A stretch of DNA of 64,000 nt. Origin: Bacteroidota bacterium. GTDB lineage: Bacteria > Bacteroidota > Bacteroidia > Bacteroidales > FEN-979. The position numbers and the translations under genes are program-made. The stretch's first letter is position 1. Every line of letters starts with the position of its first letter. The stretch covers positions 170,014-234,013 of the forward strand of contig JAPLDJ010000024.1 of the NCBI GenBank assembly GCA_026391805.1, read 5' to 3'. Below the pieces are notes generated by a model. It ran no database searches, had not been told where the DNA came from, and was given only the letters and a program-made list of their open reading frames with translations. Positions 15,389-52,904 of this stretch are shown in pieces.

Positions 15389-15457
15389 GGATGTGGGATA
15401 TGAGATGTGAGATGTGAGATGTGAAATGTGAAATGTGAGATCTGAGATCTGAGATGA
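15389..15457. repeat. Drifting 7-bp tandem repeat, about 10 units
   Basis: The units read gggatgt gggatat gagatgt x3 gaaatgt x2 gagatct x2 gagatga. They begin right after the stop codon at 15386-15388, in a convergent intergenic spacer. Confidence 0.9.
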
Positions 15458-15468
15458 GTGTCTGGTAC

Positions 15469-15503
15469 AAAAAAAGCCGCCCCATTCCGGGAGCGGCTTT
15501 TTC
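15469..15503. terminator. Bidirectional rho-independent terminator
   Basis: The sequence aaaaaaGCCGCcCC-attcc-GGgaGCGGCttttt forms a GC-rich stem flanked by an A-run and a T-run. It sits between two convergent genes. Confidence 0.7.
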
Positions 15504-15522
15504 AATTTTTGTGGGATACGGT

Positions 15523-16965
15523 TTACAGTTGATCCCACCATACGCGTTCCCATATCTGCCAAGGTGAATTGGGGATCACAGGAGTGTTGGTGTTGTATGT
15601 CTGTTCATCAACAGAATAAGGAAATCTTCTCGGGATCTCAGCCTTGACGCCGGCCGGGTTGGGTGTCAATCCGATCACATTGTTGGTCCTTCTCCAGTCG
15701 TTGAAAGCTTCCAGTTGGTAGTACATGGCAATCCACTTCTGGCGCATGATCTCGGTGAAAATAACATTCACGGCTGCATCCGGAATTGCCTGGATTGCTG
15801 CATCGTATGCTGCAATATAAGGGGCCTGGAAGGCATCCCATTTCATCATGGATGCGGTCACGGCTGCAACAAGTGTTGATTTTACATTTGTCATTGAGCC
15901 TCCGGATTTCAGCAGGGCCTCAGCCTTTATGAACAGTACCTCCGTGTTGGTGATGAACTGTACGGGTGATGCTTCATAGGCAACTGCTACACCCGGCCAG
16001 GAGATCTCAGCTCCGCTGCCTGCATAATTAAATGGGGCGCCGAGGAAATCACCATCGCCATTGGGGTCGGCATAAGAACCGAGACGTGGATCGAGACGCC
16101 CTTTAAGCGTGTCGATCAGGGTTGAATGCATCTGGACATCGCCTCTTTCATATTCGAAATTAAAGAACGGATTGGAATAAGGCATGGATGTGAAAACAAA
16201 ATCACAGTCATCCGCATTCGCTGCAATAGCGCCGCTGTCGATAAACCGCAGTGCATCAGCATATGCTGTATTTCCGGGGACTTTGGACAAGTGAAGCGCA
16301 TAACGGGCTTTAAACGCCCATGCAGCTGCCAGCCACTTGGAAGCACTGCCGCCATAGATAAGGTCACGGCTTGCTGAGGATGACGTTGCCCTCAGGTGTA
16401 CGATGGCATCATCCAGCAGGGCCTGGATCGTTATATAGATCTCCTGCTGTGAGTCAAATTTCGGCTGAAGGTTTTCAAAACCCAGGAATGATTCTGAATA
16501 GGGTATATCACCCCAAACATCCGTAGTGACACCCAGCGTATTGGCCATCAGAACTTCAGCGATTCCTTTGTAAACATGCCCTACGCTTGCTTCAGCAGGC
16601 AGTGCCAGCTTAACATCTGCCTTATTCATGATCTGAACAAGGTCGGTCATGGTGGTGGAATAGTTGGAGTTCCACAGGTTGTTGATATCAGAGTTGTTCA
16701 ACAGGTAATTCTGCTGGATGGCTGACTGACGTGCCATCCCGTTGATGTATTGCATCCACATCGAAACAACCCGGGCATTATCATTGCCGCCAATAGTATT
16801 ATAGGCCATATTGGTTTCAGCATAGGCCAGGAGAACGCTCATATCCACGTCGGGAGGTGAATCTTTATAGGTGTTGACATTGGGATCGATCCACTTCTTG
16901 CAGGAGCCGAGTGCCAGGATGACCAGCAACAAGATCCCGATAAATTTGAAGTTTATTTTTTTCAT
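15523..16965 (-). CDS. susD: SusD/RagB-family nutrient-binding outer-membrane lipoprotein
   Basis: 480-aa ORF with a lipoprotein signal (LALGSCKKW). It lies immediately downstream of a SusC-like gene and has a typical SusD-like C-terminus (...NDWRRT...PRRFPYS). Confidence 0.85.
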   Translation of the reverse strand: MKKINFKFIGILLLVILALGSCKKWIDPNVNTYKDSPPDVDMSVLLAYAETNMAYNTIGGNDNARVVSMWMQYINGMARQSAIQQNYLLNNSDINNLWNSNYSTTMTDLVQIMNKADVKLALPAEASVGHVYKGIAEVLMANTLGVTTDVWGDIPYSESFLGFENLQPKFDSQQEIYITIQALLDDAIVHLRATSSSASRDLIYGGSASKWLAAAWAFKARYALHLSKVPGNTAYADALRFIDSGAIAANADDCDFVFTSMPYSNPFFNFEYERGDVQMHSTLIDTLKGRLDPRLGSYADPNGDGDFLGAPFNYAGSGAEISWPGVAVAYEASPVQFITNTEVLFIKAEALLKSGGSMTNVKSTLVAAVTASMMKWDAFQAPYIAAYDAAIQAIPDAAVNVIFTEIMRQKWIAMYYQLEAFNDWRRTNNVIGLTPNPAGVKAEIPRRFPYSVDEQTYNTNTPVIPNSPWQIWERVWWDQL

Positions 16966-17003
16966 GACTCTTTGTTTTTTAGTTTTTTAACAACTTTCTT
17001 ACA

Positions 17004-20000
17004 TTATAAGGCAAGGGTCAGGCCGAGGGTATAACTTTTCGTTCCCGGCATGTTGAAATAATCAATACCCTGTGCATTGGAATTACCCAAAAGGCTGGTT
17101 TCAGGGTCCACTCCGCGGTAATGGGTGAATAGCAGGAGGTTTGTTCCCGTGAAATAGACTTCAAGTCCCTTGATAAAGGTCTTGGCCAGCAAATGGGTAA
17201 GAGAATAAGAAAGCGTGATGGTGCGCAGACGGACCCATCCGGCGTCTTCAATGTTGTCAAAAACAGGTCCGCTGAAACCGTTGCCAACATTATTGACAAC
17301 CCAGTCCTGATCTTTCTTGACTGGTTTTGTGTTCCATTCACCTGTTGGATTTCCATTATTATCAACGACAACACCTTCATAAACGTACCAGTCATTCCGG
17401 TCAAGTGTTTCTGCGGCTGTTCCGAAGTACTGGATTGCTCCCCGGGTGCCGTTCCACATTTTTCCACAGTGTTTGATATCGATCAGGAAGGCGAATGAGA
17501 GGTCTTTCCAGCGAAGCATGCTGCCGATTCCCATGGTCCAGTCGGGGTCGACGTTTCCAAGGGGGATCAGGTCTGTACCTGCAATCGGGTATCCATCCTG
17601 TCCGATCAGGGCATTCCCGTTTGCGTCGCGCTGCCAGTCGGTTCCGTAAATGGTACGATAGGGCTGTCCGACTTCTGCACGGATCTGGCAACTCTCGAAC
17701 CCGCCAAGGAAGAGGCTGTTGATGCCGGGGGCCAATGCAAGAACCTTGTTGCGGATCCGCGAATAGTTAACGGTGAGATCCCATTCCCAGTTCTTCGATT
17801 TGATCGGGATGATCTCTAAGGTCAACTCATTACCCGTCGTCCTCATGGAAGCAGCATTGGTATACATGGTTGCATAACCGGAAGAAGCTGCGACCGGTGC
17901 GTTGAGCAACAAGTCCTCGCCTTTATTATTAAAGTAGGTATAAGAGAGAGAGATCCGGTTCTTCCAGAACTTCAGGTCTGTTCCCACTTCAAAGGATTTC
18001 GTTTTCTCAGGTTTCAGTTTCTCGTTTCCAAGTCCCGGGCCCCAGGTATATCCTGAAGTGTTGTTGAACGGGAATGGATCGCCGGTCGTCCAGCCATCAT
18101 TAATGGTGTACTGGTTAAAGGTGGTCGAGGTATAATAAGGAGCTGCATCTTTTGCAACAATGGCATAAGAAACCCTGATCTTTCCGTAAGGAAGAACCTT
18201 GTTGTCCTTCAGAGGTTCAAGCTGAGTAAAGATCCAGCCTGCCCCGAATGACGGGTAGAAGAATGAATTGTTGGATTTCGGAAGCGTGGTTGACCAGTCG
18301 TTACGTCCGGTAATGCTCACGTAAAGCATGCTCTTCCAGGATAATTCCAAATCTCCGTAGAATCCGGCTCTTCTGATCTCCCTGGTTGATTCCCCTACGG
18401 ACTGACTTTCGGTGTTGTTCATGTTGAAATAATCCTTGAACAGAAGTCCGTTGGCAGTACCTTGCAGATTGTTGTAATAAAGCTGGGCCACGTTGTTTCC
18501 AAGGATGAAATGCAGGTTGAAATCCTTTGCAAAATCCTTGTCGATGGTCATGATAAGGTCTGAATTGAAATCCTTGTTGGTTTCCATGGTTTCAATAACA
18601 CGGCCGGACGGAGCTGTTGCAGATCCGATGGCAATCTCGTCATTGACCTTGCGTCCCCACCAGTCAACACCCAGGCGGTATGAGAAGCTTAACCATTTGG
18701 TGGCGAAATAATTGATACCAACATCACCGATCAAACGGTTTGTCTTGTCTTTGTAATGATTCATGTTTGCAGTCCAGTAGGGATTGTCATACCCGCCGCC
18801 ATGACGGTAACTTCTCTGTTTCCCGTCGGCATAATAGTTACTGCCATAGATTACATAACCTGCTGAGTTGTCAAATGTGGGAGGCGTCCTGAGCAGACCC
18901 AGCATAACGCCGGAGGTATTGGATCCCTGCTGGACACGGTTGGCATCTGTTATGATGTAATTGGCATTCCCGGAAATCTTCCACTTGTCGGATAATTTTG
19001 TGTCTCCGGAAAGTTTAAATGTGTTCCTGCGGAACCAGTTGTTGGGAACAACCCCTTTGCTCTGGTTATCCGAAAAACTGAAATAGAAAGTGGTGATATC
19101 GTTACCGCCGGTAAGGGCGATAGAGTTGTTGGTGGTTATACCGGTCTGAAAGAAGTCATAAGGGTCATAAACATTGACGGCTGCTCCTGTAGGATTGGTG
19201 GGCTTGCCGTTTGCATAGGAGGTTTGATTTTTACCTATGATGGCTCCGTCAGGGTCATAAAGCGGCCAGAAGTTCGCTGAACCCGGTGGTGTACCGGTTG
19301 CAGGTCCGTTATAGGTATTATCATAGGTACAGGTATCAATTTTGGGCCCCCAAGAGATCCGGTTTCCGGATGACCACTGTCCGTAAGATCCCTGTGCGAA
19401 TTCTTTCTGAAGCTGTGGCACCTGGCTTATCTTGTCAAAGGTTACGGAAGAGTTAAAGTTTACATTGATCTTTTTACCCGTTCCGGCTTTTCCCTTCTTG
19501 GTGGTGATGATGATGGCGCCTGATGCAGCCCTTAATCCGTAGAGGGCCGTGGCAGCTCCACCTTTCAGGACGTTCATGCTTTCAACGTCATCCGGGTTGA
19601 TGTCGATGGCACGGTTGGAGGTTGCCACTCCGTCAACACCCTGTCCGGAAATAACATCACCATATGTACCACCGCTGTTGTCGATGGGAACCCCGTCAAC
19701 AACGAACAGTGGCTGGTTATCTCCTGTGATCGACTGAACCCCGCGGATGGAGATGTAAGAACCTGCTCCTGCAGTACCTGCAGATTGGATGACCATGACG
19801 TCGGACACCCTGCCCTGGAGGGAACCGATGATATCGCCCTGGGCAGATTTCGAGATTTCATCAGAACCCACATTCTGCACTGAATAACTCAGGGCCTTGG
19901 TTTCACGCGGAATACCGATGGCGGTCACCACGATCTCATCCATGTTCATTACGTCCGGCTCCAGCACCATGTCCATGGTATTGGATTCCCCGATTTTAAC

Positions 20001-20249: not shown

Positions 20250-20587
20250 AATGGATGGTTTTGGTTAGTAAAAGGGTTAATAATTATTCAGAAATAAACA
20301 AGGGCACATCGGATAACATCTTATTGTGTCACCCGCTATGAAATATATTGAGTTATTGTTTATGACGATCCATTATATCCAATGCAATTTTAACATAAAA
20401 TTAACAATTGTCAAACAATTTTAAGATTATTTTATAAAAAAAATCGTCCAACTTGTGAACTAATTATTTTTTTGCCATTAACCTGTTTAAGGTTAACCTT
20501 ATACAAAATCATCATCCAACGGCGAAATACATATTTCACCGGGTGTATACGGAGGATTAAGGCAGAAAAGAAGGTCTGAGTTAAAAA

Positions 20588-21010: not shown

Positions 21011-21011
21011 T

Positions 21012-21455: not shown

Positions 21456-21482
21456 GCGCCTTCAGGTTAAGAAGATGACGAT

Positions 21483-23073: not shown

Positions 23074-24537
23074 TCAGCGAACGAGCCCTATCAACCCTTC
23101 AGCCGATACCTCCTTCTGTTCTCCCGTATTCATATCTTTCAGTGTCAGCAAACCCGAGTTCATCTCTTTTTCGCCGGCAAGCACCACGTATGGGATGTTT
23201 TTTTTGTTGGCATAATCCAGTTGCTTTTTCAGTTTGGCAGCTTCCGGGTAGATCTCGGCCGGAATGCCTGATCGCCGTACTTTTGCCAGCACCGGAAGAC
23301 AATATTTTTCTTCTTTTTCCCCGAAATTAATAAAGAGGACTTTTGTTGTGGACTGGATGGTTTCCGGGAAAAGGTTCAGTTCATTCATTACATCATAGAT
23401 CCGGTCGGCTCCGAAGGAGATACCGACGCCCGAAACACCCTTCAGTCCAAAGATCCCGGTAAGGTCATCGTACCTGCCACCGCCGCAGATGCTGCCGATC
23501 GGGACATCCTTCGCCTTTACCTCGATGATGGTGCCGGTGTAGTAATTCAGTCCGCGGGCCAGTGAAATGTCGAACTCAACAGAATCTGTCAGGCTAAGAT
23601 CGTTCAGATAGGCATAAATCATTCCCATTTCACCGATGCCTTTCATCCCAATTTGTGAACCGGAAAGATTTTCCTTCAGGAAGGGGAGTATTATGTTGAT
23701 ATGAGTTTCTGATGCAAAATTGAGGAAGGGCAGCAGCGATTCAATCGCATGTTCAGTAAATCCCTTCTGGCGCAATTCGTTCATAACAGCATCAAATCCT
23801 GCTTTATCGATTTTGTCGAGCGAGATGGTCAGATCGGTTAACCGGTTGGGTTCACCGATAACTTCTGCAATACCGGCAAGGATCTTCCGGTTGTTCAGCT
23901 TAACCGTAAAGCCCACGCCCAGTTCTTTAAAAATGGCGCCGATGATCTGAACCAGTTCAACTTCGTTCAGCAGTGAATCGCTTCCGATCACATCCACATC
24001 ACACTGAAAGAACTCGCGGTAACGGCCTTTCTGCGGGCGGTCGGCCCTCCAGACAGGCTGGATCTGATATCGTTTAAATGGAAAGGTGATCTCATTCTGA
24101 TGCTGCACCACAAACCGCGCAAACGGAACCGTCAGATCATACCGCAATCCCTTCTCGGCAATAAACGGCAAAAGTTTCCGGTAATCCATCAAACCCTCTT
24201 CCTCCGCCTTCAGACCTCCGCCCTCCGACCTTTGTCCTCCATCCTCCATCCTCAATTCTCCATCCTCCGACCTCAGACCTCCGCCCTCCGGCTTCGCTTT
24301 ACTGACCCCGTCAAGAAAATTCCCCGAATTAAGGATTCTGAACAGAAGTTTGTCGCCCTCTTCACCATATTTCCCAAGCAATGTAGAAAGATTTTCCATC
24401 GCCGGGGTTTCGATCGGGAGGTAGCCGTATAGCTGGAATACCCTCCGGATGGTGTCGAAAATGAAATTCCTTTTCACCATTTCATCCGGAGAAAAATCAC
24501 GGGTACCTTTGGGAATGGAAGGTTTCTGGACTGACAT
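23074..24537 (-). CDS. hisS: Histidine--tRNA ligase with a repeat-encoded internal insertion
   Basis: 487-aa ORF with class II HisRS motifs: [46 protein letters not shown] and GGGRYDDL, plus a C-terminal anticodon-binding domain. Confidence 0.92.
24192..24292 (-). repeat. In-frame 21-bp (3 x 7 bp) tandem repeat inside hisS, about 5 units
   Basis: The coding strand reads ggagggcggaggtctgaggtc ggaggatggagaattgaggat ggaggatggaggacaaaggtc ggagggcggaggtctgaaggc ggaggaagagggtttgatgga. This encodes [35 protein letters not shown]. Confidence 0.85.
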
Positions 24538-24595
24538 TCAGGAATTTTTGTACAAATATATGAATAATCGGGGAACGCAAACCCGGTGTTGCCGG

Positions 24596-26275: not shown

Positions 26276-26283
26276 AAATTATC

Positions 26284-26323
26284 AAATGGTAAAATGGTAA
26301 GATTGTAAAATTGTAATATTGGA
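26284..26323. repeat. Drifting 8-bp tandem repeat, 5 units
   Basis: The units read aaatggta aaatggta agattgta aaattgta atattgga. They lie between the ettA start and the stop of the glycosyltransferase gene. Confidence 0.8.
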
Positions 26324-30174: not shown

Positions 30175-30261
30175 AGAAAGGAGGATGACCGTTACAAAAA
30201 TAGCTATTCTTTTTAACGCGACTTTAATTATTGTATTTTTGCCATTTGCCGGAAATCTGAG

Positions 30262-30317
30262 GTCGGAGGTCGGAAGACTGAAGACTGAAGACTGAGGATG
30301 GAGAATGGAAGATGGAA
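30262..30317. repeat. Drifting 7-bp tandem repeat, 8 units
   Basis: The units read gtcggag gtcggaa gactgaa gactgaa gactgag gatggag aatggaa gatggaa. They lie in a divergent intergenic region and share words with the hisS insertion and the 44704 repeat. Confidence 0.9.
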
Positions 30318-30322: not shown

Positions 30323-30363
30323 TTCTGTGACTAATCCGTGTTAATCTGTGAAAATCTGTGGTG
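30323..30363. repeat. 10-bp tandem repeat, about 4 units
   Basis: The sequence reads ttctgtgac taatccgtgt taatctgtga aaatctgtgg, directly after the 7-bp repeat and 34 nt before the ATG at 30397. Confidence 0.7.
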
Positions 30364-30396
30364 AATAATAAATAGCGAAAGGCGAAAAAAGAGTTC

Positions 30397-31593
30397 ATGA
30401 CCATAATCGAAGTCAACAATAAGAAAACCATCCGGGAATTCCTGGAGGTGCCGGCCATTATTTATAAAAATGATCCATACTGGGTCCGGCCCCTCGACCA
30501 CGAGGTCGAATCGATCTTTGACCAGAAGATCAACAGTTTCTTCACGCATGGCGAAGCGATACGGTGGGTAATGAAGGATGACAACGGCGCACTGACCGGG
30601 AGGGTAGCTGCTTTCATCAATAAAAACAAGGCGTTTACGTTCCCGCAGCCAACTGGTGGGATGGGTTTTTTTGAATGCACCGATAACCGGGACGCCGCCT
30701 TTCTGCTTTTTGACACCTGCCGCAACTGGCTGGAGGCGCGTGGCATGCAGGCCATGGATGGCCCGGTCAATTTCGGAGAGAACGATGTCAACTGGGGCCT
30801 GCTGGTGGACGGATTCATCCACCCCGGACTTGGGATGAATTACAACCCGCCCTATTATCGTGAGTTTTTTGAATCGTATGGGTTCAAATTCTATTTCGAG
30901 CAGGTCTCCAACCACCTGGACCTGACCAAACCATTTCCGGAACGGTTCTGGAAGATTGCAGAGTGGGTCCGGAACAAGCCGGAAAACAAGTTTCTTCATT
31001 TCACCTATAAAGAGACTGCAAAATTCATTCAAGATCTGAAAGAAATCTATGATGATGCCTGGGCTTTTCATGAAAGCTTTACCCCGCTGGAGGAAAAGCT
31101 TCTCATGAACACGTTGAAGAAGTCCCGCCCCTTCCTGGATGAAGAAATGATCTGGTTTGCCTATCACAACGGTGAGCCCGCCGCATTCCTGATCATGTTC
31201 CCCGACGTAAACCAGATCCTGAAACACCTGAATGGGAAACTGCACCTCTGGAACCAGCTCAAATTTCTTTACCTGAAAAAGAAAAAAACCATAACACGTG
31301 CCCGCATTGTCATCATGGGCGTAAAACCCAAATTCCAGCGTCACGGGCTCGAATCCGGGATCTTCTGGCACCTGAATGAAAAGATGAAGAAAAAGCCCCA
31401 ATTTACCGAACTTGAACTTTCCTGGGTGGGCGATTTTAACCCGAAGATGAGGGCTCTCCACGAAAGTGTGGGAGCCGTTTTTGGCAAACGCCACATTACT
31501 TACCGGAAATTATTTTCAGGAGAGATACCGGAGCAGCGTTCGACGATCATTCCGGTTGATACCAAGGAAAAAGCATTGCGGAATAAGCAATAA
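30397..31593 (+). CDS. GNAT-fold acyltransferase-like protein, distant paralog C of 12104..13231 and 14267..15388
   Basis: 398-aa ORF with the same architecture as paralogs A and B. It has an N-terminal F..VP...Y..DP.W..P block, a central GM.A.DGP.NF block, NYNPPYY, and a C-terminal GNAT motif-A-like GVKPKFQRHGLESGIFW. Confidence 0.65.
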   Translation: MTIIEVNNKKTIREFLEVPAIIYKNDPYWVRPLDHEVESIFDQKINSFFTHGEAIRWVMKDDNGALTGRVAAFINKNKAFTFPQPTGGMGFFECTDNRDAAFLLFDTCRNWLEARGMQAMDGPVNFGENDVNWGLLVDGFIHPGLGMNYNPPYYREFFESYGFKFYFEQVSNHLDLTKPFPERFWKIAEWVRNKPENKFLHFTYKETAKFIQDLKEIYDDAWAFHESFTPLEEKLLMNTLKKSRPFLDEEMIWFAYHNGEPAAFLIMFPDVNQILKHLNGKLHLWNQLKFLYLKKKKTITRARIVIMGVKPKFQRHGLESGIFWHLNEKMKKKPQFTELELSWVGDFNPKMRALHESVGAVFGKRHITYRKLFSGEIPEQRSTIIPVDTKEKALRNKQ

Positions 31594-37564: not shown

Positions 37565-37630
37565 TCCACCACAATAGGCCCATTAGGTCACATTAGATCT
37601 ATTGCGTCCTAATGTGCCTACTGTGGTAAG
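37565..37630. repeat. Degenerate copy (A) of a long inverted-repeat element found 3' of the array paralogs
   Basis: The sequence is ccaccacaataggcc-cattaggtcacattagatctattgcgtcctaat-gtgcctactgtggta. It has the same word structure as copies B and C, but the arms are imperfect. Confidence 0.7.
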
Positions 37631-37744: not shown

Positions 37745-37817
37745 TAAATAACGAAAGATAATCGAAGGATAAACGTAAGATAAACGTAAGATAAACGTAA
37801 GATAAAAAAACGTAAAG
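37745..37817. repeat. 11-bp tandem repeat, about 6 units (3 perfect)
   Basis: The units read ataaataacgaaag ataatcgaagg ataaacgtaag x3 ataaaaaaacgtaaag. They end about 45 nt upstream of the paralog-4 -7 box. Confidence 0.85.
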
Positions 37818-37861
37818 CGACTTTCCCGGACAGCGCAGCTTCACTTTCGCGAATTTTTGAT

Positions 37862-39809: not shown

Positions 39810-39821
39810 CTTATTTCACCA

Positions 39822-39890
39822 CAATAGGCACAATAGAACACAATAGAATCTAATGTGAACTAATGTGCCTATTGTGGTGAAAAGGGCAAC
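39822..39890. repeat. Long inverted-repeat element, copy B (perfect 18-bp arms, 33-nt spacer)
   Basis: The arms are TTTCACCACAATAGGCAC and GTGCCTATTGTGGTGAAA. The spacer is built from cacaatag / ctaatgtg words. The element begins 13 nt after the paralog-4 stop. Confidence 0.85.
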
Positions 39891-42031: not shown

Positions 42032-43903
42032 ATGAAAAAGATTTTATTCATCTTTTTAGCCTTTGGTTTGACCATTGGCAGTCAAGCGCAATTCAAGGCA
42101 TTAATGCAAAAAAAGGCAAATGTCATCGCCCCGATGCAAAAAAATCAAAACATCGATCTCCCGGTGGTTGGCGAACTTCCTGGCAACGGCTATGTTTCCA
42201 ATAAAAACATCCTGGCTGATCCTGTTTCATCTGTGACAAGGTACGACCTGCAGACCAATTCTTCTAACCAGCGTAGGATTTACCTGTTCCCTGACGGGAC
42301 GGTCGGGACGACCGTGACTTGGTCACAACAGGATGCTTCGTGGACTGATCGCGGAACCGCATATAACTATTTCGATGGAACTTCTTTCGGACCATTACCG
42401 ACCTCAAGGGTCGAACAGGAAAAGACAGGATGGCCCGAGTACCACCCGTTCGGCCAAAATGGAGAACTGATCATTGCCCACGAGAGCACTTTCAATGGCC
42501 CACTTGTGATGAACACACGCCAGGTAAAAGGAAACGGTTCCTGGACCGAGAAACTGTTACCCGCACTTCCGGCTACCATACCGGTTATGATGTGGCCTAG
42601 GGTTGTAACAAACGGTCCTGATCATACCAATATTCATGTGATAGCATTGACCGGCCCAAGTTCGAACGGAGGAATCCCCTATAACGGTATGAATGGTGCC
42701 ATCGTCTATTCCAGATCACTGGACGGCGGTGCAACATTCTCCGACTGGATCCAGCTTCCCGGAATGACTTCATCCGAATACAAGGCTTTCACAGCCGATA
42801 TCTATTCGTTTGCCGAGCCAAAAGGCGATACACTTGCCTTCACTGTCGGTGATTCCTGGCAGGATCAGTTCCTGATGAAATCAACCGACAACGGAACGAC
42901 ATGGACGAAAACGATCATCTACAAATCCCCCTATAATCTTGGAGGAAATTCTCCAGATTGGTTCTATTGCCCTGACGGTACGATGTCAGTTGCCCTGGAC
43001 AACCAGGGAATTGCACATGTCGTTTTCGGTTTGCAGCAAGACAGCTTCTCGTATTATGCCCCATATTACCGGCCGTATACACAGGGTATTGTTTACTGGA
43101 GTGAGACGATGCCTGAACTCAGGGAGGATCTTGATCCCGATTCTCTCTTTGCCAACGGACAGTATGTAGCATGGATAAAAGATACCATGGTTTTCTACCC
43201 GTCATTGGGCGTTTCACTGCAGACATTTTATACATCGCTCACGAGCAACCCGGAGCTTGTCATTGATAATGACAACAGAGTGTTCCTGGTATGGGCGGGA
43301 GTGACTTCACTGGTCGATTGGTATGACCGTATGTTACGCCATATCTTTGGACGGGATGGTTATATCACCCCATCAGGGGCTGTTTACTGGCACAATGATA
43401 CACTTGTTGATCTGACTTCCGACTGGGTTCAGTACCATTACGCTGAGTGCATGTATCCATCGGCTTCGCCAACAACAGATAATTCCGTTTACATTCTTTT
43501 CCAGAAAGATGAATACGCGGGCTCATATGTTAAACTAATCAATTCATACAATGGCCCTCCGCCTAGTGATAATTTTATCACGCTTTTACAATGGCAAAAA
43601 CCCGACTGGCCGACAATGGGCGTTGTGAAGCAACCTGAAAAGCCTCTTCTTTCTGTTTCCCAGAACTTCCCTAACCCGGTTTCGGGTGCAACGACCATAA
43701 ATGTTTACCATCAAAATCCTGGCACACTCACGCTTGAAGTGACCAACCTCACCGGACAGAACATCCTTCATATGGAAAAGACAAATGTTCTCCCGGGTGT
43801 CAACCAGTTTACTGTTGATGGAAGCAATCTGCCACCAGGAGTTTACTTCTATACGGTGATAATGGAAGGGGAGAAGATCACGAAGAAAATGGTTGTTCAA
43901 TAG
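42032..43903 (+). CDS. Secreted Asp-box repeat protein with T9SS sorting domain, array paralog 6 of 6
   Basis: 623-aa ORF with signal peptide MKKILFIFLAFGLTIGSQAQ and the conserved core. The CTD ends GVYFYTVIMEGEKITKKMVVQ. Confidence 0.85.
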   Translation: MKKILFIFLAFGLTIGSQAQFKALMQKKANVIAPMQKNQNIDLPVVGELPGNGYVSNKNILADPVSSVTRYDLQTNSSNQRRIYLFPDGTVGTTVTWSQQDASWTDRGTAYNYFDGTSFGPLPTSRVEQEKTGWPEYHPFGQNGELIIAHESTFNGPLVMNTRQVKGNGSWTEKLLPALPATIPVMMWPRVVTNGPDHTNIHVIALTGPSSNGGIPYNGMNGAIVYSRSLDGGATFSDWIQLPGMTSSEYKAFTADIYSFAEPKGDTLAFTVGDSWQDQFLMKSTDNGTTWTKTIIYKSPYNLGGNSPDWFYCPDGTMSVALDNQGIAHVVFGLQQDSFSYYAPYYRPYTQGIVYWSETMPELREDLDPDSLFANGQYVAWIKDTMVFYPSLGVSLQTFYTSLTSNPELVIDNDNRVFLVWAGVTSLVDWYDRMLRHIFGRDGYITPSGAVYWHNDTLVDLTSDWVQYHYAECMYPSASPTTDNSVYILFQKDEYAGSYVKLINSYNGPPPSDNFITLLQWQKPDWPTMGVVKQPEKPLLSVSQNFPNPVSGATTINVYHQNPGTLTLEVTNLTGQNILHMEKTNVLPGVNQFTVDGSNLPPGVYFYTVIMEGEKITKKMVVQ

Positions 43904-43908
43904 CTTTA

Positions 43909-43975
43909 TTCACCACAGTAGGCACAGTAGAACACAATAGTATCTAATGTGACCTAATGTGCCTATTGTGGTGAA
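43909..43975. repeat. Long inverted-repeat element, copy C
   Basis: The arms are TTCACCACAGTAGGCAC and GTGCCTATTGTGGTGAA. The single arm difference would be a G-U pair in RNA. The spacer words match copy B. Confidence 0.85.
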
Positions 43976-44009
43976 AAGAGCAAGTCCCTCAAAACTTAGC
44001 AAAATTTCC

Positions 44010-44017
44010 TACCTTTG
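44010..44017 (+). promoter_or_regulatory. Candidate -7 box (TACCTTTG) upstream of ccmB
   Basis: TAnnTTTG match 24 nt upstream of the ATG at 44041. Confidence 0.3.
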
Positions 44018-44040
44018 CCCTCCATTTTACAGAATTCTGA

Positions 44041-44700
44041 ATGTTAGGTAAGGAGACTAAAATCCTCATCGGAAAGGAGATCCGGCTGGAGCTGAAGCAG
44101 AAATACGTGCTGAACGGCATCCTGCTTTACCTTGTCTCAACCATATTCGTAACTTATCTTGCATTCGACAAGATCATCAGTACCGATACCTGGAACTCGC
44201 TCTTCTGGATCATCCTGCTGTTTGTTGCGGTGAACGGGATCTCGAAAAGCTTTGTACAGGAAAGCCCGGCGCGACACCTCTATTATTATACGGTTGCAAG
44301 CCCGCAGGCGATCCTGCTTTCAAAGGTCATCTACAACCTCCTGCTGATGACCATCCTGTCCGTATTCTCCTTTGTCTTTTTCATCGTACTGATGGGAAAC
44401 CTGGTGGTGAACCTGCCTCTGTTCCTGGTTACGCTCATTCTCGGCAGCCTCGGACTGGCATCCATCCTGACGATGGTGGCGGCGATCGCTTCACGTGCCA
44501 GCAACAACTTTTCCCTGATCGCCATCCTGAGCTTTCCCATCGTCCTGCCACTTTTGGGAACCCTGATGAAGGTCTCGAAAAGTGCGCTATCTGCTTCGGA
44601 ATGGACGGGAAACTATGGCTTTATCGTCATCCTCCTCACCATCAACATCACCGTGATCGTGCTGGCATATCTGTTATTTCCGTACCTTTGGCGGGACTAA
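44041..44700 (+). CDS. ccmB: Heme exporter protein B (CcmB-like ABC permease)
   Basis: 219-aa, 6-TM ORF. Size, topology and position (immediately before ccmC-D-E) fit CcmB. Sequence resemblance to E. coli CcmB is loose. Confidence 0.65.
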   Translation: MLGKETKILIGKEIRLELKQKYVLNGILLYLVSTIFVTYLAFDKIISTDTWNSLFWIILLFVAVNGISKSFVQESPARHLYYYTVASPQAILLSKVIYNLLLMTILSVFSFVFFIVLMGNLVVNLPLFLVTLILGSLGLASILTMVAAIASRASNNFSLIAILSFPIVLPLLGTLMKVSKSALSASEWTGNYGFIVILLTINITVIVLAYLLFPYLWRD

Positions 44701-44703
44701 TTT

Positions 44704-44801
44704 CTGAGGGCCGAAGTCCGATGTCAGAGGACTGAAGACAGAGGATGGAAGATGGAGGATAGACATTAATTACGTATGTCTTATGACATATGACATATGA
44801 C
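44704..44801. repeat. Drifting 7-bp tandem repeat, about 14 units, inside the ccmB-ccmC spacer
   Basis: The units read ctgaggg ccgaagt ccgatgt cagagga ctgaaga cagagga tggaaga tggagga tagacat taattac gtatgtc ttatgac atatgac atatgac. Confidence 0.8.
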
Positions 44802-44818
44802 GAATTAAAAAGGAACGA

Positions 44819-45508
44819 ATGACATTTTTGAAACATAACTGGTGGAAACTATTATCAGGCCTGCTGCTTCTTTACGCAATCCTGGGCGGGTTCATGATCT
44901 CATTTTCCTGGGAAGGAACCGGCATGGAGATCGCCGCCGAATCGATGCGGAACCTCTTTTACCATGTAGGAATGTGGTTCGGGATGATGTCCATGCTGAT
45001 CACCGGGTTCGTATACAGCCTGCGGTACCTGAGGAAATTTGACGAGGTGGAGGACATCAAGGCGGTTGAAGCTGTGAATGTCGGACTCCTGTTCGGCTTC
45101 CTGGGCATCTTTACCGGGATGATCTGGGCCAATTTTACCTGGGGCACACCCTGGGTGAAAGACCCGAAGCTGAATGGCGCTGCCGTTGGCTTGCTGATCT
45201 ACCTGGCCTACGCCATTCTGAGAGGCTCGATCGATGAGCGCCACAAACGGGCAAAAGTCGCTGCCATCTATAACATCTTTGCATTCTTCCTCTGGGTTGT
45301 ACTTGTGATCATCCTTCCCAGGCTGGCAGGGGAGAGCCTTCACCCGGCCGGGGGCGGCAATGCCAATACCGTGCTCCCGATGCACCTTCAGTCGTCGATG
45401 CGGCTCGTTTTTTACCCTGCCATGATGGGATGGATCCTGCTGGGCTTCTGGATCTTCACGATCCGCGTGAGGATCCGCAAAATCAAATTATTCACCGAAA
45501 ATAACTGA
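44819..45508 (+). CDS. ccmC: Heme exporter protein C (CcmC, cytochrome c assembly family)
   Basis: 229-aa ORF with a Trp-rich WWD-like motif (WANFTWGTPWVKDPKLNGA) flanked by conserved His contexts (LFYHVGMW and GESLHPAGG). Confidence 0.8.
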   Translation: MTFLKHNWWKLLSGLLLLYAILGGFMISFSWEGTGMEIAAESMRNLFYHVGMWFGMMSMLITGFVYSLRYLRKFDEVEDIKAVEAVNVGLLFGFLGIFTGMIWANFTWGTPWVKDPKLNGAAVGLLIYLAYAILRGSIDERHKRAKVAAIYNIFAFFLWVVLVIILPRLAGESLHPAGGGNANTVLPMHLQSSMRLVFYPAMMGWILLGFWIFTIRVRIRKIKLFTENN

Positions 45509-45513
45509 ACCCC

Positions 45514-45660
45514 ATGTTAGAAAACGGAAAGATCATGGTCGTAGTGGCCGTTCTTGCACTCATACTGGTAGGCATCGTGGTCTACCTTTTCCTGATCGAT
45601 AAAAAGGTCGGGAAACTGGAAAAAGAAGTTGAAGAAAAAATTGCTGAAACCAGAAAATGA
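45514..45660 (+). CDS. ccmD: CcmD-like small single-TM protein (48 aa)
   Basis: Below the ORF-track size cut-off. My translation is MLENGKIMVVVAVLALILVGIVVYLFLIDKKVGKLEKEVEEKIAETRK. The stop overlaps the ccmE ATG (ATGA). Position and shape fit CcmD. Confidence 0.6.
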   Translation: MLENGKIMVVVAVLALILVGIVVYLFLIDKKVGKLEKEVEEKIAETRK

Positions 45661-46067
45661 AGACAATTCATATCGTCATCCTGCTGGTACTCGTTATCGC
45701 CGTCGCCGTTGTCGTGACTACCCTTACGGATGCCAGCACCTATTCGAATTTTAACGATGCAACGGCCACCCCCGGGAAAGAATTTCACATCATCGGTGTG
45801 CTGAACCGCAATAAGCCCATCGATTACGACGCAACCAAAGATGTCAATCGTTTTTCATTCTACCTTGTCGATGATAAAGGTGTGGAGAAGAAGGTGATCT
45901 ATAACAACACCAAACCCCAGGACTTTGAAAAATCGGACAAGGTGGTCGTGATCGGCTCCATGAAGAACGATGAATTCCAGGCCACCAGTCTTCTGCTCAA
46001 ATGCCCCTCGAAATACAACGCCAACAAGCCGAAGGAATTCGGGGAGAAGACATATAAGGCGAAGTAA
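45657..46067 (+). CDS. ccmE: Cytochrome c-type biogenesis heme chaperone CcmE, CxxxY variant
   Basis: 136-aa ORF with an N-terminal TM anchor and an OB-fold-like body (FHIIGVL...VIYNNTKPQDFEKSDKVVVIGSM...FQATSLLLKCPSKY). Cys replaces the canonical heme-binding His. Confidence 0.75.
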   Translation: MKTIHIVILLVLVIAVAVVVTTLTDASTYSNFNDATATPGKEFHIIGVLNRNKPIDYDATKDVNRFSFYLVDDKGVEKKVIYNNTKPQDFEKSDKVVVIGSMKNDEFQATSLLLKCPSKYNANKPKEFGEKTYKAK

Positions 46068-46075
46068 CGCAAAAT

Positions 46076-46096
46076 TCTGGATCCTGGATCCTGGAT
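46076..46096. repeat. 7-bp tandem repeat (tctggat cctggat cctggat)
   Basis: Read directly from the sequence, 9 nt after the ccmE stop. Confidence 0.85.
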
Positions 46097-46145
46097 AATT
46101 TACATACCCGGAGAAGCTTTTTAAACTGATACGAACATTTTTTAT

Positions 46146-46180
46146 CTAGCATCCAGCATCCAGCATCCAGCATCAATCCA
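46146..46180. repeat. 7-bp tandem repeat (ctagcat ccagcat x3 caatcca), near reverse complement of the 46076 block
   Basis: Read as atccagc units, it is the reverse complement of cctggat apart from one base per unit. It ends 12 nt before the ATG at 46192. Confidence 0.85.
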
Positions 46181-46191
46181 AACAGAACCAG

Positions 46192-48099
46192 ATGCCTTAT
46201 AAATCCTTACAGCACTTTATCGCCGCACTTGATCAGGCCGGGGAACTGGTGCGGGTGAAGGAATTTGTTTCGCCGCACCTTGAGATCACCGAGATCACCG
46301 ACCGGATCAGCAAGAACCATGGCAAAGCTTTATTGTTTGAAAATACAGGATCCGGATTCCCACTGCTGATCAATGCCTTCGGTTCGGAAAAGCGGATGTG
46401 CATGGCACTCGGCGTAAAGACACTTGATGCAGCAGGCGATGAGCTTGGAAAGATCCTCCAGGAATTCCTCGGCCCGAAAGAGAGTTTCCTGGAAAAATTA
46501 AAACTGATTCCTGCGCTGAAGGAGATCTCCTCCTGGATGCCGCACCTTGTCAGCGGTAAGGGAAGCTGCCAGGAGGTGATCATGGAAACCCCCGACCTGA
46601 CAAAGCTCCCGGTTCTGACCTGCTGGCCTTCCGACGGCGGACCTTTCATTACTTTGCCGGTGGTTCATACCAAAGATCCGGTTACGGGTATTAAGAACCA
46701 GGGCATGTACCGCATGCAGGTATTCGGACCTACCCTCACGGGGATGCACTGGCACCGGCACAAAGGATCGGCCCATCATTTTACACAATATAAAGAACTG
46801 GGGCTGCGAATGCCTGTCTCGGTCACCCTTGGCGGCGACCCGGTCAACACCTATGCGGCGACTGCTCCCCTGCCTGAAAATCTTGACGAATACCTTCTTT
46901 CCGGATACCTGCGGAAAAAGAAGGTTGAACTGGTAAAATGCCTGACCAATGATCTCGAGGTGCCGGCCGATGCCGATTTTGTGATCGAAGGTTACGTCGA
47001 TCCTGATGAAGAGTTCATCCTGGAGGGTCCTTTCGGGGATCATACCGGCTTTTATTCCCTGGCGGATATGTACCCCAGGTTCCATGTGACCTGCATCACC
47101 CACCGGAAACATGCCGTTTATCCTGCAACAGTGGTGGGTATTCCTCCCATGGAAGATGAATGGATGGGAAAGGCGACGGAAAGGATCTTTCTCCTCCCGA
47201 TGAAGATGTTCACCGTTCCCGAGATGAATGACATCGACATGCCGGTGGAAGGGGTTTTTCACAACATCGTTCTTACAAGTATTCATAAATCATTTCCCGG
47301 CCAGGGATTAAAGGCCATGACCTCGCTCTGGGGCGCCGGACAGATGATGTTCAACAAGTTCATGATCGTGGTGAACGGAACCGTTGATGTTCATGATTAT
47401 AAGGCAGTGGCACGGGAGGTTTCAGAGCGCACCGATCCGATGCACGAAATTCATTTCATGAAAGGTCCTGTGGATGTGCTCGACCATTCGAGCCGCCGTT
47501 TCTCCTTCGGAAGCAAAATGGGGATCGACGCCACGGAAAAATGGCCGGAGGAGGATGAAAAAGCAGGTATTCATTTCGGGGAACCTTTAATCGACAAGAA
47601 TGCCATTCTGAAAAAATTCCCGGAGATCACCGGCATGAATGATTCACTCCTGCAGGAAAAGATCTCGATCGTGATATTTTCGGTGAAGAAGAACCGGAAA
47701 AATCATATCCGCGAAACCGGCGCTGAACTGTTGAGATCAGGATTGATTTCCGGTATCCGTTTTCTGATTTTTATGGATCCGTCAATTGATCTTGCATCAT
47801 TTGCAGATGTTGCCTGGATCGCCGCCAACAACATGGACCCGATGAGGGATTGTTTTCATGCCTCTTCTGCTGATGGGGAAGATTTCCCTGTCCTGCTGAT
47901 GGACGGCACCCGCAAAACCCCTGAATTCGATGCATTTGGCCGGGACTGGCCGAATGTGATCGTCATGGATGACACGACCATTCAGAAGGTTGACAAGGAG
48001 TGGGACCGATACGGTCTTGGTCCTTTCTTTCCTTCTCCTTCACTGAAATACAAGACCCTGATTGTCAATGAAGGGCCAATGGTGGGGAAAGGTTTTTGA
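46192..48099 (+). CDS. UbiD-family (prenylated-FMN dependent) decarboxylase, long form; probable menaquinone-biosynthesis decarboxylase
   Basis: 635-aa ORF. The N-terminus (LQHFIAALDQAGELVRVKEFVSPHLEITEITDR) and core (GMYRMQV...WHRHKGSA...GPFGDHTGFY) are typical of UbiD. Confidence 0.8.
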   Translation: MPYKSLQHFIAALDQAGELVRVKEFVSPHLEITEITDRISKNHGKALLFENTGSGFPLLINAFGSEKRMCMALGVKTLDAAGDELGKILQEFLGPKESFLEKLKLIPALKEISSWMPHLVSGKGSCQEVIMETPDLTKLPVLTCWPSDGGPFITLPVVHTKDPVTGIKNQGMYRMQVFGPTLTGMHWHRHKGSAHHFTQYKELGLRMPVSVTLGGDPVNTYAATAPLPENLDEYLLSGYLRKKKVELVKCLTNDLEVPADADFVIEGYVDPDEEFILEGPFGDHTGFYSLADMYPRFHVTCITHRKHAVYPATVVGIPPMEDEWMGKATERIFLLPMKMFTVPEMNDIDMPVEGVFHNIVLTSIHKSFPGQGLKAMTSLWGAGQMMFNKFMIVVNGTVDVHDYKAVAREVSERTDPMHEIHFMKGPVDVLDHSSRRFSFGSKMGIDATEKWPEEDEKAGIHFGEPLIDKNAILKKFPEITGMNDSLLQEKISIVIFSVKKNRKNHIRETGAELLRSGLISGIRFLIFMDPSIDLASFADVAWIAANNMDPMRDCFHASSADGEDFPVLLMDGTRKTPEFDAFGRDWPNVIVMDDTTIQKVDKEWDRYGLGPFFPSPSLKYKTLIVNEGPMVGKGF

Positions 48100-48145
48100 A
48101 AAATTTCAGGAATTTTTAATAATTTTGCGAAGGAAACCGTATCGC

Positions 48146-50575: not shown

Positions 50576-50609
50576 TTATGCATTTTAACCAAATTAAATC
50601 TCATACATT

Positions 50610-51557
50610 ATGAAAAGGATCTTTACGCTTTCAGTGCTTGTTTTAGGCATGTTTACTTACAGTTTCGGTCAGCAGAATGTCCGGGGCGGAACGTTTGAAT
50701 ACTGGAAATACAACGCCACCCACAATTTCTACCAGCCCGACAGCAGCATCTTCTGGACGCTGAACCAGCTCGACACCATTCCCACTCCCCCGGGCATCAC
50801 CGCTTATCCCTGCGATACTGCTCATAACGGAAGTAAATCCGTGCGGGTGGTCACAAGGAAGATCGATTTGCTGGATATTATCATCCCGGGGGTTATCGGG
50901 ACGATCAATATCAAGTGGTCCACTTCGATGGCTGTTATCGGAATCCCCTATCCCTACGGTACGACAAAGCCGGTACAGTTTTCTGGCTTCTATCAATCCT
51001 ATCCGCTGAGCGGGGATTCATCGGCCGCAGTTCTTCTTCTTTCAAAATGGAATTCAACATTTCACCGCCGCGATACGCTGGCTTATAACCGGTTGGTTTT
51101 CTTTGGAACCGTGAACAGCTGGACGCAGTTTGACATTCCCGTCACCTACCGCGATCCGGTTACAATCCCTGACTCACTCACGATTCTTTTATTATCGTGC
51201 GGCGGATTCGACGCGGGAAATATGTTTGGAAGCGTCGGAACAGTTGGCAGCACAGCGCTCTTTGACGATGTTAACCTGACCGGTGTGAACGGATTTCCGC
51301 TGGTTCTTATGCCTGATGTGTCAGTTAAGCTTTCCCCGAATCCTGCGAAGGATTTCATGAACATTCAGCTTGGCGAAGAGATCACGAACGGGTATTTTGA
51401 AGTTTATGATGCCCAGGCAAAGCTGATGCACCGGTTCCAGATTAATGGTACTTCGCAGCAGATCAGTGTCGGGGACTTATCATCAGGCATGTATTATTAT
51501 AAACTTACAGGGCAGGGCAAACTGCTCAACTCCGGCACTTTTGCCATAAGTAAATGA
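50610..51557 (+). CDS. T9SS C-terminal sorting-domain protein, N-terminal PCMD-like domain (function unknown)
   Basis: 315-aa ORF with a signal peptide. The C-terminal CTD reads LSPNPAKDFMNIQL...SSGMYYYKLTGQGKLLNSGTFAISK. The N-terminal GGTFEYW... region recalls the putative carbohydrate-metabolism domain often found next to TonB-dependent receptors. Confidence 0.6.
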   Translation: MKRIFTLSVLVLGMFTYSFGQQNVRGGTFEYWKYNATHNFYQPDSSIFWTLNQLDTIPTPPGITAYPCDTAHNGSKSVRVVTRKIDLLDIIIPGVIGTINIKWSTSMAVIGIPYPYGTTKPVQFSGFYQSYPLSGDSSAAVLLLSKWNSTFHRRDTLAYNRLVFFGTVNSWTQFDIPVTYRDPVTIPDSLTILLLSCGGFDAGNMFGSVGTVGSTALFDDVNLTGVNGFPLVLMPDVSVKLSPNPAKDFMNIQLGEEITNGYFEVYDAQAKLMHRFQINGTSQQISVGDLSSGMYYYKLTGQGKLLNSGTFAISK

Positions 51558-51575
51558 TCTTAATTTTTATTGACC

Positions 51576-52799
51576 ATGAGTGAAATTAAAACTTCCCAAA
51601 TGGCCATGGACCTGGAAGACAGGTACGGGGCTCACAACTATCATCCATTGCCTGTAGTTCTTTCGAAGGGACAGGGTGTTTATATGTGGGATGTAGAAGG
51701 AAAGCGGTATTTCGATTTTTTATCCGCCTATTCAGCCGTCAACCAGGGCCATTGTCACCCGAAGATCATCAGTGCCCTGATCGCACAGGCGCAGACCCTG
51801 GAGCTTACATCACGGGCATTTTACAATGATGTCCTTGGCGTTTATGAAAAGTTCATAACGGAATATTTCGGATACGAGCGTGTCCTTCCTATGAACACCG
51901 GTGCTGAAGGCGACGAAACCGCGCTGAAGCTTACCCGTAAATGGGCCTACAAGGTAAAAGGCGTTCCCGAGAACCAGGCGAAGATCATCTGCTGTGAGAA
52001 CAATTTCCATGGCCGCACGATCTCCGTGATCTCCATGTCGACCGATCCCCAGGCCACAAACGATTTCGGGCCATTTACCCCCGGATTCATCAAGATCCCT
52101 TACAACGATCTGAACGCGCTTGAAAAGGCGCTGGAAGACCCCACGGTTGCAGGATTCCTTGTTGAACCGATCCAGGGCGAAGCCGGTGTTTACGTTCCGG
52201 ATGCAGGATACCTGAAGAAAGCCTGGGAACTTTGCAAATCGAAGAATGTCCTGTTCATCGCCGATGAGGTTCAGACCGGGATCGCCCGTACAGGTAAGCT
52301 GCTCGCATGTGACTGGGAGGGTGTAAGACCTGATGTCCTGATCCTTGGAAAGGCGCTATCTGGCGGGGTTTATCCTGTTTCAGCCGTCCTGGCCGACGAT
52401 CACATCATGCTGACGATAAAACCCGGCGAACATGGTTCCACCTTCGGAGGAAACCCCATTGCCTGCCGTGTCGGCATTGCCGCACTGGAGGTGATCAGGG
52501 ATGAGAAACTGGCTGAAAATGCCTACAACATGGGGATCATTTTCAGGGAGGAACTGGAGAATATCAAGTCGCCGATGGTTGAACTTGTCAGGGGCAAGGG
52601 ATTGCTGAATGCAGCGGTCATAAAGCCGGTGAATGGCAAAACAGCATGGGATGTCTGCCTCAAGATGCGGGATAACGGACTGCTTGCAAAGCCTACCCAC
52701 GACCACATCATCCGCTTCGCCCCGCCGCTCATCATCAACGAAGAGCAGGTGAAAGAAGCAGTTGAGATCATCCGCGTTTCGCTGAAATCATTTGAATAA
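51576..52799 (+). CDS. rocD: Ornithine aminotransferase (class III PLP aminotransferase)
   Basis: The ATG at 51576 is preferred over the TTG at 51570. Motifs: [37 protein letters not shown], and [12 protein letters not shown]...ILGKALSGG containing the PLP lysine. Confidence 0.85.
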
Positions 52800-52814
52800 A
52801 AACTCACCCCCTCA

Positions 52815-52850
52815 GTCCCCCTCTCTTTGAAGAAAAGAGAGGGGGACTTT
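52815..52850 (+). terminator. Rho-independent terminator after rocD
   Basis: The sequence GTCCCCCTCTCTT-tgaagaa-AAGAGAGGGGGAC forms a perfect 13-bp stem followed by ttt. Confidence 0.75.
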
Positions 52851-52876
52851 ATATTCTTACCCAAACCCACACTTCA

Positions 52877-52904
52877 TTTGACGTATGACGTATGACGTAT
52901 GACG
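52877..52904. repeat. 7-bp tandem repeat (tttgacg tatgacg x3)
   Basis: Read directly in the convergent spacer. It shares the tatgac word with the 44781-44801 block. Confidence 0.85.

Follow-up and report, generated by a model that had tools for sequence, protein, structure and literature searches.

Drifting heptanucleotide tandem repeats in the intergenic spacers of an uncultured Bacteroidales genome

The window analyzed here, a 64,000-nt stretch of DNA (C21:170014-234013), belonged to a 3.89-Mb, 28-contig, 48% G+C metagenome-type assembly, whose closest named relatives were uncultured Bacteroidales and Prolixibacteraceae metagenome-assembled genomes. Short tandem arrays, mostly of 7-bp units, were found in its intergenic spacers, and these heptamer arrays are the subject of the present analysis. 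All seven repeat-bearing spacers listed in an earlier note on this DNA were recovered by Tandem Repeats Finder (TRF) on the window, and the flanking gene names given there, CcmB, CcmC, CcmE, and UbiD, were right; the other array-flanking products included GNAT acetyltransferases, SusD-like protein, LptF/G, ABC-F ATPase, glycosyltransferase, class-III aminotransferase, and TonB-dependent receptor. The arrays of the window were as follows.

15389 to 15457, plus strand: heptamer array of 9.6 copies, GAGATGT passing into GAAATGT and then GAGATCT (TRF 15390-15456, period 7)
24200 to 24290, minus strand: array within hisS, 13 heptamers (4.5 x 21 bp) with a GAGGTCG/GAGGATG/GAAGATG vocabulary
26276 to 26321, strand unassigned: period-8 array of the AAATTGTA type, 5.8 copies (TRF)
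30259 to 30317, plus strand: mosaic heptamer array, GAGGTCG x2, GAAGACT x3, then GAGGATG/GAGAATG/GAAGATG
30374 to 30387, plus strand: two-unit member of the AGCGAAA family (AGCGAAA GGCGAAA)
44704 to 44801, plus strand: mosaic array filling the ccmB-ccmC spacer (TRF 44725-44760, period 14, and 44782-44801, period 7)
46076 to 46096, plus strand: CTGGATC x3, the 5′ arm of an inverted array pair, 9 nt past the ccmE stop (TRF 46077-46096, period 7)
46144 to 46174, plus strand: ATCCAGC x4.4 (GATGCTG family), the 3′ arm of the same inverted pair (period 7)
52879 to 52905, minus strand: TGACGTA x3.9 in plus-strand spelling (period 7)

The GNAT-family gene at 14267-15388 had the array at 15389-15457 starting 1 nt past its stop; about 10 nt beyond the array there was a hairpin resembling a terminator, with a T run (about 15467-15500), which the convergent SusD-like gene shares. 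The hisS array was a true in-frame low-complexity insert of about 31 aa between conserved HisRS motifs, while the array at 26276-26321 occupied the entire spacer from the glycosyltransferase stop to the ABC-F ATPase start, both genes being on the minus strand. The array at 30259-30317, for which TRF gave two period-7 rows over 30259-30295 and the extension to 30317 was judged by eye, lay between two divergent genes, lptF/G (minus) and one for a GNAT protein (plus, ATG at 30397); the two AGCGAAA-family units at 30374-30387 stood directly 3′ of a "...CTGTGGTGA ATAATAAAT" arm module (see below), an arrangement also present at several other loci. In the ccmB-ccmC spacer, purine-rich GAGG/GAAG-type units began 4 nt past the ccmB stop and gave way to TATGACA x3, which left about 18 nt to the ccmC ATG. 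The ccmE-ubiD inverted pair at 46076-46174 folded as three 6-bp helices with C-C mismatches (-25.7 kcal/mol, z = -3.4). The array at 52879-52905 lay 3 nt beyond the stop of a minus-strand gene for a TonB-dependent receptor (52909-55473), between this stop and a terminator-like hairpin at about 52805-52840. Block-wise drift, in which a run of one heptamer gives way to a run of a new heptamer differing by 1-2 bases, was seen in the window as the earlier note had described, and so were words common to several loci: GAGGATG/GAAGATG at 30294-30314, 44741-44760, and minus-strand 24200-24290 (hisS), and TATGAC at both 44781 and 52884.

The whole genome gave 896 period-7 TRF rows, compared with 89 in an order-3 Markov genome of equal size, and at a TRF score of at least 40 the respective numbers were 482 and 0. 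A strict scan of the genome, restricted to arrays with at least three near-perfect copies, returned 245 arrays of period 7, 27 of period 8, and 6 each of periods 6 and 9. The period-7 enrichment thus extended beyond the window. The window itself contained seven period-7 arrays at a TRF score of at least 40, with 7.9 expected from the genome mean; the density that had been called unusual was therefore far beyond chance but not special to this stretch, and the window is typical of an unusual genome.

Direct evidence of how an array changes came from the Logan assembly of run SRR20698641, in which one contig was identical to window 43231-45064, arrays included, and a second was identical to window 45344-46340 (990 nt) except for exactly one ATCCAGC unit fewer. 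Exact-protein look-ups for four further array-flanking genes, made for more strain copies, gave no match, and the 15389 locus had no exact match in the metagenome contigs scanned. Among arrays of at least six units there were 244 adjacent identical units, compared with 193 when unit order was shuffled (p = 5e-4), and adjoining units were more alike than distant ones. The loss of one unit and the clustering of variant units together point to replication slippage plus point mutation; with the dominance of period 7, they support the slippage-prone minisatellite, one of the options that had been offered for these repeats.

The arrays were concentrated outside genes: 75% of them lay in the 10% of the genome outside long open reading frames (ORFs; the long-ORF mask covered 90%). 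They numbered 0.67 per kb of spacer between convergent genes, 0.52 between genes of the same direction, and 0.22 between divergent genes. The median distance from an array to the adjacent stop codon was 26 nt, and in same-direction spacers the median relative position was 0.27 (0 being the upstream stop; p = 6e-7). A total of 219 genes (about 7% of all) had an array starting no more than 30 nt past their stop, and at least one array was contained in 17% of the spacers of at least 40 nt. Where a terminator hairpin was present, the array was situated between stop and hairpin (15389 and 52879). A link with terminators was rejected, since a strict hairpin-plus-T-run followed 5% of array-bearing gene ends versus 8% of the others; the arrays neither substitute for terminators nor show terminator enrichment. 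Contingency-locus (phase-variation) repeats, which lie in promoters or 5′ coding sequence, were likewise rejected for the arrays as a whole, individual cases outside the window not having been looked at, since the arrays were mainly 3′ of all kinds of genes (GNAT, ccm, aminotransferase, and TonB receptor), and so was a clustered regularly interspaced short palindromic repeat (CRISPR) array, which has 24-48-nt repeats plus unique spacers, unlike the 7-nt head-to-tail, spacerless units found here.

Of the arrays within genes, those in hisS and in genes for secreted repeat proteins were in frame. The latter proteins were large and paralogous (1,041-1,452 aa), and their genes carried in-frame ATCCAGC x3-4, read as ...NPASSIQ(Y/H)P... 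(C24:10804-15160, C24:19690-22813, C21:420195-424338, C9:60471-64548, and C25:2137-6205; the ORF caller behind these coordinates was crude).

The sequence comparison was extended to the loci around ccmC from 42 Bacteroidales-like genomes, with 38 loci from Sphingobacteriales and others kept apart. Strict arrays in the 42 Bacteroidales-like loci numbered 43 of period 7, 14 of period 8, 2 of period 6, and 3 of period 9, and period-7 arrays amounted to 95 per Mb there versus 5 per Mb in the other 38 loci. The orthologous ccmB-ccmC spacer of dozens of species held arrays that directly adjoined the ccmB stop, the ccmC ATG, or both; the recurring words were AAATCGT and its complement, GAAGATG/GAGGTCG, GATTTGA, and CTGGATG, and locus L001 harbored related words with word types in the same order as in the window. 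The ccmB-ccmC spacers of L018 and L021 (about 5840-6000) had ACGATTT-type arrays at the start and complementary AAATCGT at the end, forming a long-range inverted pair.

That the repeats might be assembly or sequencing artefacts has a negligible probability. The separate SRR20698641 assembly reproduced the ccm arrays of the window, the relatives with period-7 arrays at orthologous ccm spacers were dozens of genomes assembled independently in many studies, the arrays were short (20-100 nt) and well within read length, and the reading frame was respected where they lay in genes. The orthologous arrays of these many species rule out misassembly as their source, and they show that a site can keep its arrays from one species to another.

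Array density was compared in arbitrary 20-kb samples per genome, not selected for repeats. Strong arrays per 100 kb numbered 12.4 in the own genome, 12.0 in G013, 17.3 in G021, 8.8 in G015, and 8.3 in G025, and there were none in G003, G018, G024, G028, G020, and G016. The vocabulary also varied: (i) the 14-mer AGCGAAAAGCGAAA occurred 103 times in the own genome, 54 times in G012, and at most 10 times in each of G001, G004, and G017, and it was virtually missing from some 160 further genomes of the order, making the AGCGAAA word nearly private to the own genome and G012 (the control for the AGCGAAA pattern search was invalid, as reversal of the pattern yields a rotation of that very array); and (ii) the 14-mer GATGCTGGATGCTG occurred 102 times in the own genome, 511 in G012, 222 in G001, 165 in G009, 119 in G013, 44 in G004, 30 in G010, and 29 in G025, with 0-1 occurrences in twelve other relatives. 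On the UbiD tree, the GATGCTG carriers were early branches of a well-supported 9-genome clade, of which the nested subclade G008, G005, and G011 had almost lost the GATGCTG word, G005 and G011 being array-poor overall too. This distribution points to a vocabulary passed on largely by vertical descent, along with an expansion regime that changed at the level of the lineage; the tendency to hold arrays was a property of the lineage, seen here and in some of the relatives and nearly lost in the nested subclade.

Taken together, the arrays are probably heptanucleotide simple sequence repeats of a microsatellite-like kind, located where non-coding DNA is permissive and changing through slippage and drift, a reading to which we give a probability of roughly 70%. 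In the literature on this class of repeat, polymerase slippage has been proposed as the cause, and mismatch repair is noted to deal poorly with loops of more than about 3 nt (PMC4679880, PMC4692102, and PMC4060949). Each array would gain or lose whole 7-nt units, as one case showed directly; following that literature, strand slippage during replication would be the route of unit change, and 7-nt loops would be too large for efficient mismatch repair. Point mutation in a single unit followed by local duplication, of which the arrays bear the traces, would yield runs of one heptamer shifting by 1-2 bases. The observed placement, just past stops, between stop and terminator, and in operon spacers, more rarely in divergent promoter-bearing spacers, and in genes only as in-frame multiples of 21 nt, may result from persistence where sequence is least constrained. 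Slippage would not cover the spread of one word to about 70-100 spacers in a preferred orientation, which might be due to ectopic gene conversion between arrays sharing the 7-nt register, combined with RNA-level selection on the transcribed strand. Loss of mismatch repair was rejected as a driver, MutL being present in 16 of 17 genomes, array-rich and array-poor alike.

There were 77 different dominant words in the genome, linked by single-base steps (121 one-mismatch links versus 54 +/- 9 at random), which fits unit duplication or deletion plus point mutation. Other properties of the word families weigh against this reading. Two-unit tandems of GATGCTG and AGCGAAA were present at 72 and 83 places, respectively, and the flanks of both were unrelated, apart from about 12 GATGCTG copies in frame within paralogous secreted-protein genes. 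An identical word at about 70-100 loci with unrelated flanks, and in frame in hisS, makes independent local slippage impossible as the source. The AGCGAAA (= AAAAGCG) family was oriented 31 sense to 5 antisense (p = 1.3e-5), lay at a median of 2 nt after the stop, and displayed a fixed architecture AAAT-[AGCGAAA]2-5-T-AGCGAAA at 83 loci, of which 40 started no more than 12 nt past a same-strand stop. The AAATCGT family was oriented 17:5 and lay near the downstream start, 8 of 20 arrays ending within 15 nt of the ATG of an ORF. Summed over families, the majority orientation accounted for 172 of 234 arrays, against a null of 147 +/- 4.6, and the purine-rich strand went with gene direction (86:54), not with GC skew. 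Moreover, the change of copy number was seen as a single polymorphic unit, in two assemblies that may share one sample. Three features thus lie beyond slippage alone: the presence of one word at about 70-100 loci, the fixed orientation and position of families, and the abundance or absence of words among relatives. A replication-strand bias was rejected as well, since the purine-rich strand did not follow local GC skew.

The oriented families could be functional RNA elements, that is, arrays of sites that an RNA-binding protein or the ribosome would recognize in leaders, operon spacers, or 3′ untranslated regions. AGCGAAA and purine-rich GAGG/GAAG words just after stops and AAATCGT just before starts would then act on translation coupling, on initiation where a Shine-Dalgarno sequence is missing, or on the stability of the mRNA, slippage merely tuning copy number; this is compatible with slippage and drift as the way in which the arrays evolve. 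Such a function is suggested by the sense-strand bias and the fixed distance to stop or start, by AAATCGT-type units directly before the ccmC ATG in L001, L013, L018, L021, L023, L029, and L031 and ccmB-ccmC arrays in dozens of species, and by TAACTGA repeats, which are likewise found directly upstream of starts and for which translational regulation has been proposed (MacGregor 2015, PMC4679880). It is nevertheless held here only tentatively, as a doubtful proposition. With 77 dominant words no single binding specificity fits; GATGCTG, the commonest family, showed no orientation preference (10:11); array RNA was no less structured than shuffled sequence; no Rfam family matched anywhere in the window; the AGCGAAA word was nearly private to two genomes; and arrays were almost wholly lost in sister species, which indicates that they are dispensable. 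A heptad-recognizing protein, the second option of the earlier note, fails as a general explanation given the 77 dominant words but may still apply to single oriented families such as AGCGAAA and AAATCGT. The idea that the arrays serve as unstructured spacers was rejected, array RNA folding no less well than shuffled sequence.

Two further readings address the dispersal itself. According to the first, which is unlikely, particular heptamer words are carried to new places by some process that acts in trans and is specific to the lineage, with a preference for the 3′ ends of transcription units and for sense orientation. Candidates for it are templated repair or gene conversion aimed at gene ends, or an unrecognized enzyme. 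Two specific drivers were tried and rejected: (i) a Y1/RAYT (repetitive extragenic palindrome-associated tyrosine) transposase, as Y1_Tnp copy number was unrelated to array richness and array-rich G015 had none; and (ii) telomerase-like templated synthesis, as the genome contained no RVT_1 gene.

According to the second, the arrays derive from small mobile foldback elements spread by insertion, as the ends of such elements or as halves that have decayed; the elements would resemble miniature inverted-repeat transposable elements (MITEs), repetitive extragenic palindromes (REPs), or GxxExxY (PDDEXK_3) nuclease cassettes. Identical words at about 70-100 loci with unrelated flanks would fit such insertion, as would the 16 adjoining array pairs that were inverted (46076-46174 included), some with GT-rich/CA-rich inner segments. 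Five PF13366 genes were present in the genome as well, all of them flanked by inverted arms built of spaced words, and two arm types were present gene-less in the window, at 30323-30364 and as hairpins near 37567, 39815, and 43908. This origin is nonetheless highly improbable. Only 32 of 592 arrays were in inverted pairs, and the inner sequences of the pairs were unrelated; the cassette arms consisted of spaced words with periods of 9-11 (CACAGAT, CACGAAR, GCGCAAAG, CGCAGAT, and CACAATAGG), not of tandem heptamer words; PF13366 copy number was uncorrelated with array density (Spearman 0.27, p = 0.33); Y1 transposase displayed no pattern, and an RVT_1 reverse transcriptase was absent from the genome; and neither target-site duplications nor conserved ends were seen. 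Arrays and arm words did share spacers above expectation (121 versus 58), while within spacers the proximity of arrays to arm words was at the random level (48 versus 49.6 +/- 5.1). Since the words differ and the copy numbers are uncorrelated, the cassette arms are a class separate from the tandem heptamers. A remnant of a self-propagating repeat, the third option raised before, thus agrees with the identical words at about 70-100 unrelated loci and their abundance or absence in relatives, but no element structure or driver gene was found. An origin from MITEs was rejected on the unrelated flanks of GATGCTG and AGCGAAA arrays (bar the copies in secreted-protein genes), and GxxExxY cassettes were rejected as the array source on their different arm words, uncorrelated copy number, and lack of within-spacer proximity.

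The gene-less arms of the window comprised the following. A hairpin of about 65 nt, CACCACAATAGGCAC...GTGCCTATTGTGGTG, was located behind each of three paralogous genes for secreted proteins sorted by the type IX secretion system (Por_Secre_tail), at 37567-37630, 39815-39882, and 43908-43975; its arms matched the inverted arms around the PF13366 (GxxExxY nuclease) gene C2:65161-65487, and from this match the three hairpins look like gene-less copies of that cassette type. The segment 30323-30364, which ends in CTGTGGTGA, was a solo arm with spaced words of the AATCTGTG type; it was of the arm type of PF13366 gene C21:403035-403385, and modules of this type recurred at many loci, often sharing a spacer with AGCGAAA or AAATCGT arrays. 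The solo arm and the three hairpins account for the TRF rows of period 9-11. A conserved motif GTATTACCTTTT(N6-12)CCGATTAAKG, which may be a promoter or a part of the element, was found about 60-120 nt upstream of several PF13366 cassettes of this genome (C12 at about 251400, C2 at about 65560, and C18 at about 13000) and of relatives (L146 at about 1360-1395 and L153 at about 1410-1445). In addition, an 11-bp tandem repeat AACGTAAGATA of 5.2 copies (37750-37806) was present in the long spacer upstream of a secreted-protein paralogue starting at 37857.

Records of heptamer-dominated tandem repeats in scattered bacterial lineages go back to 1990-2007. The statement of the earlier note that no known feature class explains the arrays therefore does not hold, since heptanucleotide-dominated intergenic long simple sequence repeats (LSSRs) had already been described (Mrazek et al. 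2007, as reported in PMC4679880 and PMC4692102). In that account, LSSRs have 5-11-nt units with heptamers the most abundant, are mostly non-coding, and are sporadic across lineages (Mrazek, Guo and Shah 2007, PNAS 104:8472, as reported in the same two papers); the survey is older than the uncultured Bacteroidales concerned here. The arrays resembled LSSRs, as so reported, in being direct tandems longer than chance predicts, in heptamer dominance, in non-coding concentration with multiples of 3 tolerated in genes, in sporadic distribution, and in having slippage as the proposed cause. Specifically, (i) tandem units of 5-11 nt were commoner here than composition predicts (896 versus 89 rows; 482 versus 0); (ii) the heptamer was the dominant unit length (245 versus 27, 6, and 6 in the strict scan); (iii) the arrays were mainly non-coding; (iv) their distribution was sporadic, with 0-17 strong arrays per 100 kb within one order and 0-12 within the genus as labelled; and (v) copy number changed by whole units, with one 7-nt deletion as the sole difference in 990 nt and the clustering of variant units as indirect support. 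They differed from the LSSR description, as relayed by those papers, in their crowding at stop codons, their family-specific orientation, and their abundance or absence within one genus.

Arrays of TAACTGA, with 2 to 40 or more repeats at up to hundreds of intergenic loci, are known from marine Beggiatoaceae, some Cyanobacteria, and five Bacteroidetes (MacGregor 2015, PMC4679880); they often lie just upstream of starts, and close strains differ by indels in 7-nt steps, while a mechanism of spread was not found (PMC4679880). Likenesses to that system were one specific heptamer at many intergenic loci, with AAATCGT oriented within a few nt of starts here, as well as mixed arrays of several heptamers in some genomes and the 7-nt-step indels. 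Unlike there, TAACTGA itself occurred as 281 single copies and never in tandem in this genome, so that it is not the unit of the present arrays; 77 words were dominant, most arrays followed stops, and the AAATCGT family alone was start-proximal. Xanthomonas and Nostoc carry heptamer arrays of GGGAATC/GGGGA(T/C)T, with some 180 such intergenic loci in a genome (Rehm et al. 2015, PMC4692102); the same paper also cites the tandem heptanucleotides of Calothrix PCC 7601. The present arrays were like the Xanthomonas and Nostoc repeats in the variation of copy number and sequence at the same spacers of close relatives and in occasional hairpin-capable inverted pairs, but unlike those G-rich, quadruplex-capable words, GATGCTG, AGCGAAA, AAATCGT, and GACATAA were not so constituted. 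None of the published heptamer words GGGAATC, GGGGA(T/C)T, and TAACTGA occurred in tandem in this genome.

With REPs, bacterial interspersed mosaic elements (BIMEs), and GxxExxY cassettes, the arrays had in common that they are small dispersed intergenic repeats favoring gene 3′ ends and convergent spacers, with some inverted pairs. They differed from REP/BIME, which are imperfect palindromes of 20-40 nt with a cognate Y1 RAYT, in being direct tandems with no conserved ends and no link to Y1, and from the arms of PF13366 foldback cassettes in that the tandem heptamer words were distinct from all five arm types and lacked any copy-number link. The absence of these published words in tandem, the many words, and the placement after stops make the present arrays a separate case within a known kind. 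The phenomenon is known yet mechanistically unexplained, and what is new here is the lineage and its own words.

In practical terms, such arrays break short-read contigs and extend ORF calls, and in-frame low-complexity inserts arise from them in essential genes such as hisS. To our knowledge, there is still no account of why units of 7 nt are favored, of the way in which a single word gets to hundreds of spacers, or of what, if anything, the arrays do. If a trans-acting copying process did exist, its loss would explain the fall of the nested subclade from hundreds of arrays to none, and a presence/absence comparison between array-rich and array-free members of one genus would expose the responsible gene. 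The clade offers a natural comparison, with sister species that have hundreds of arrays or none, words inherited over species-level distances, and families at set positions with a strand preference; the abundance or absence among sister species and the set positions of the families make the open questions on this class of repeat testable.

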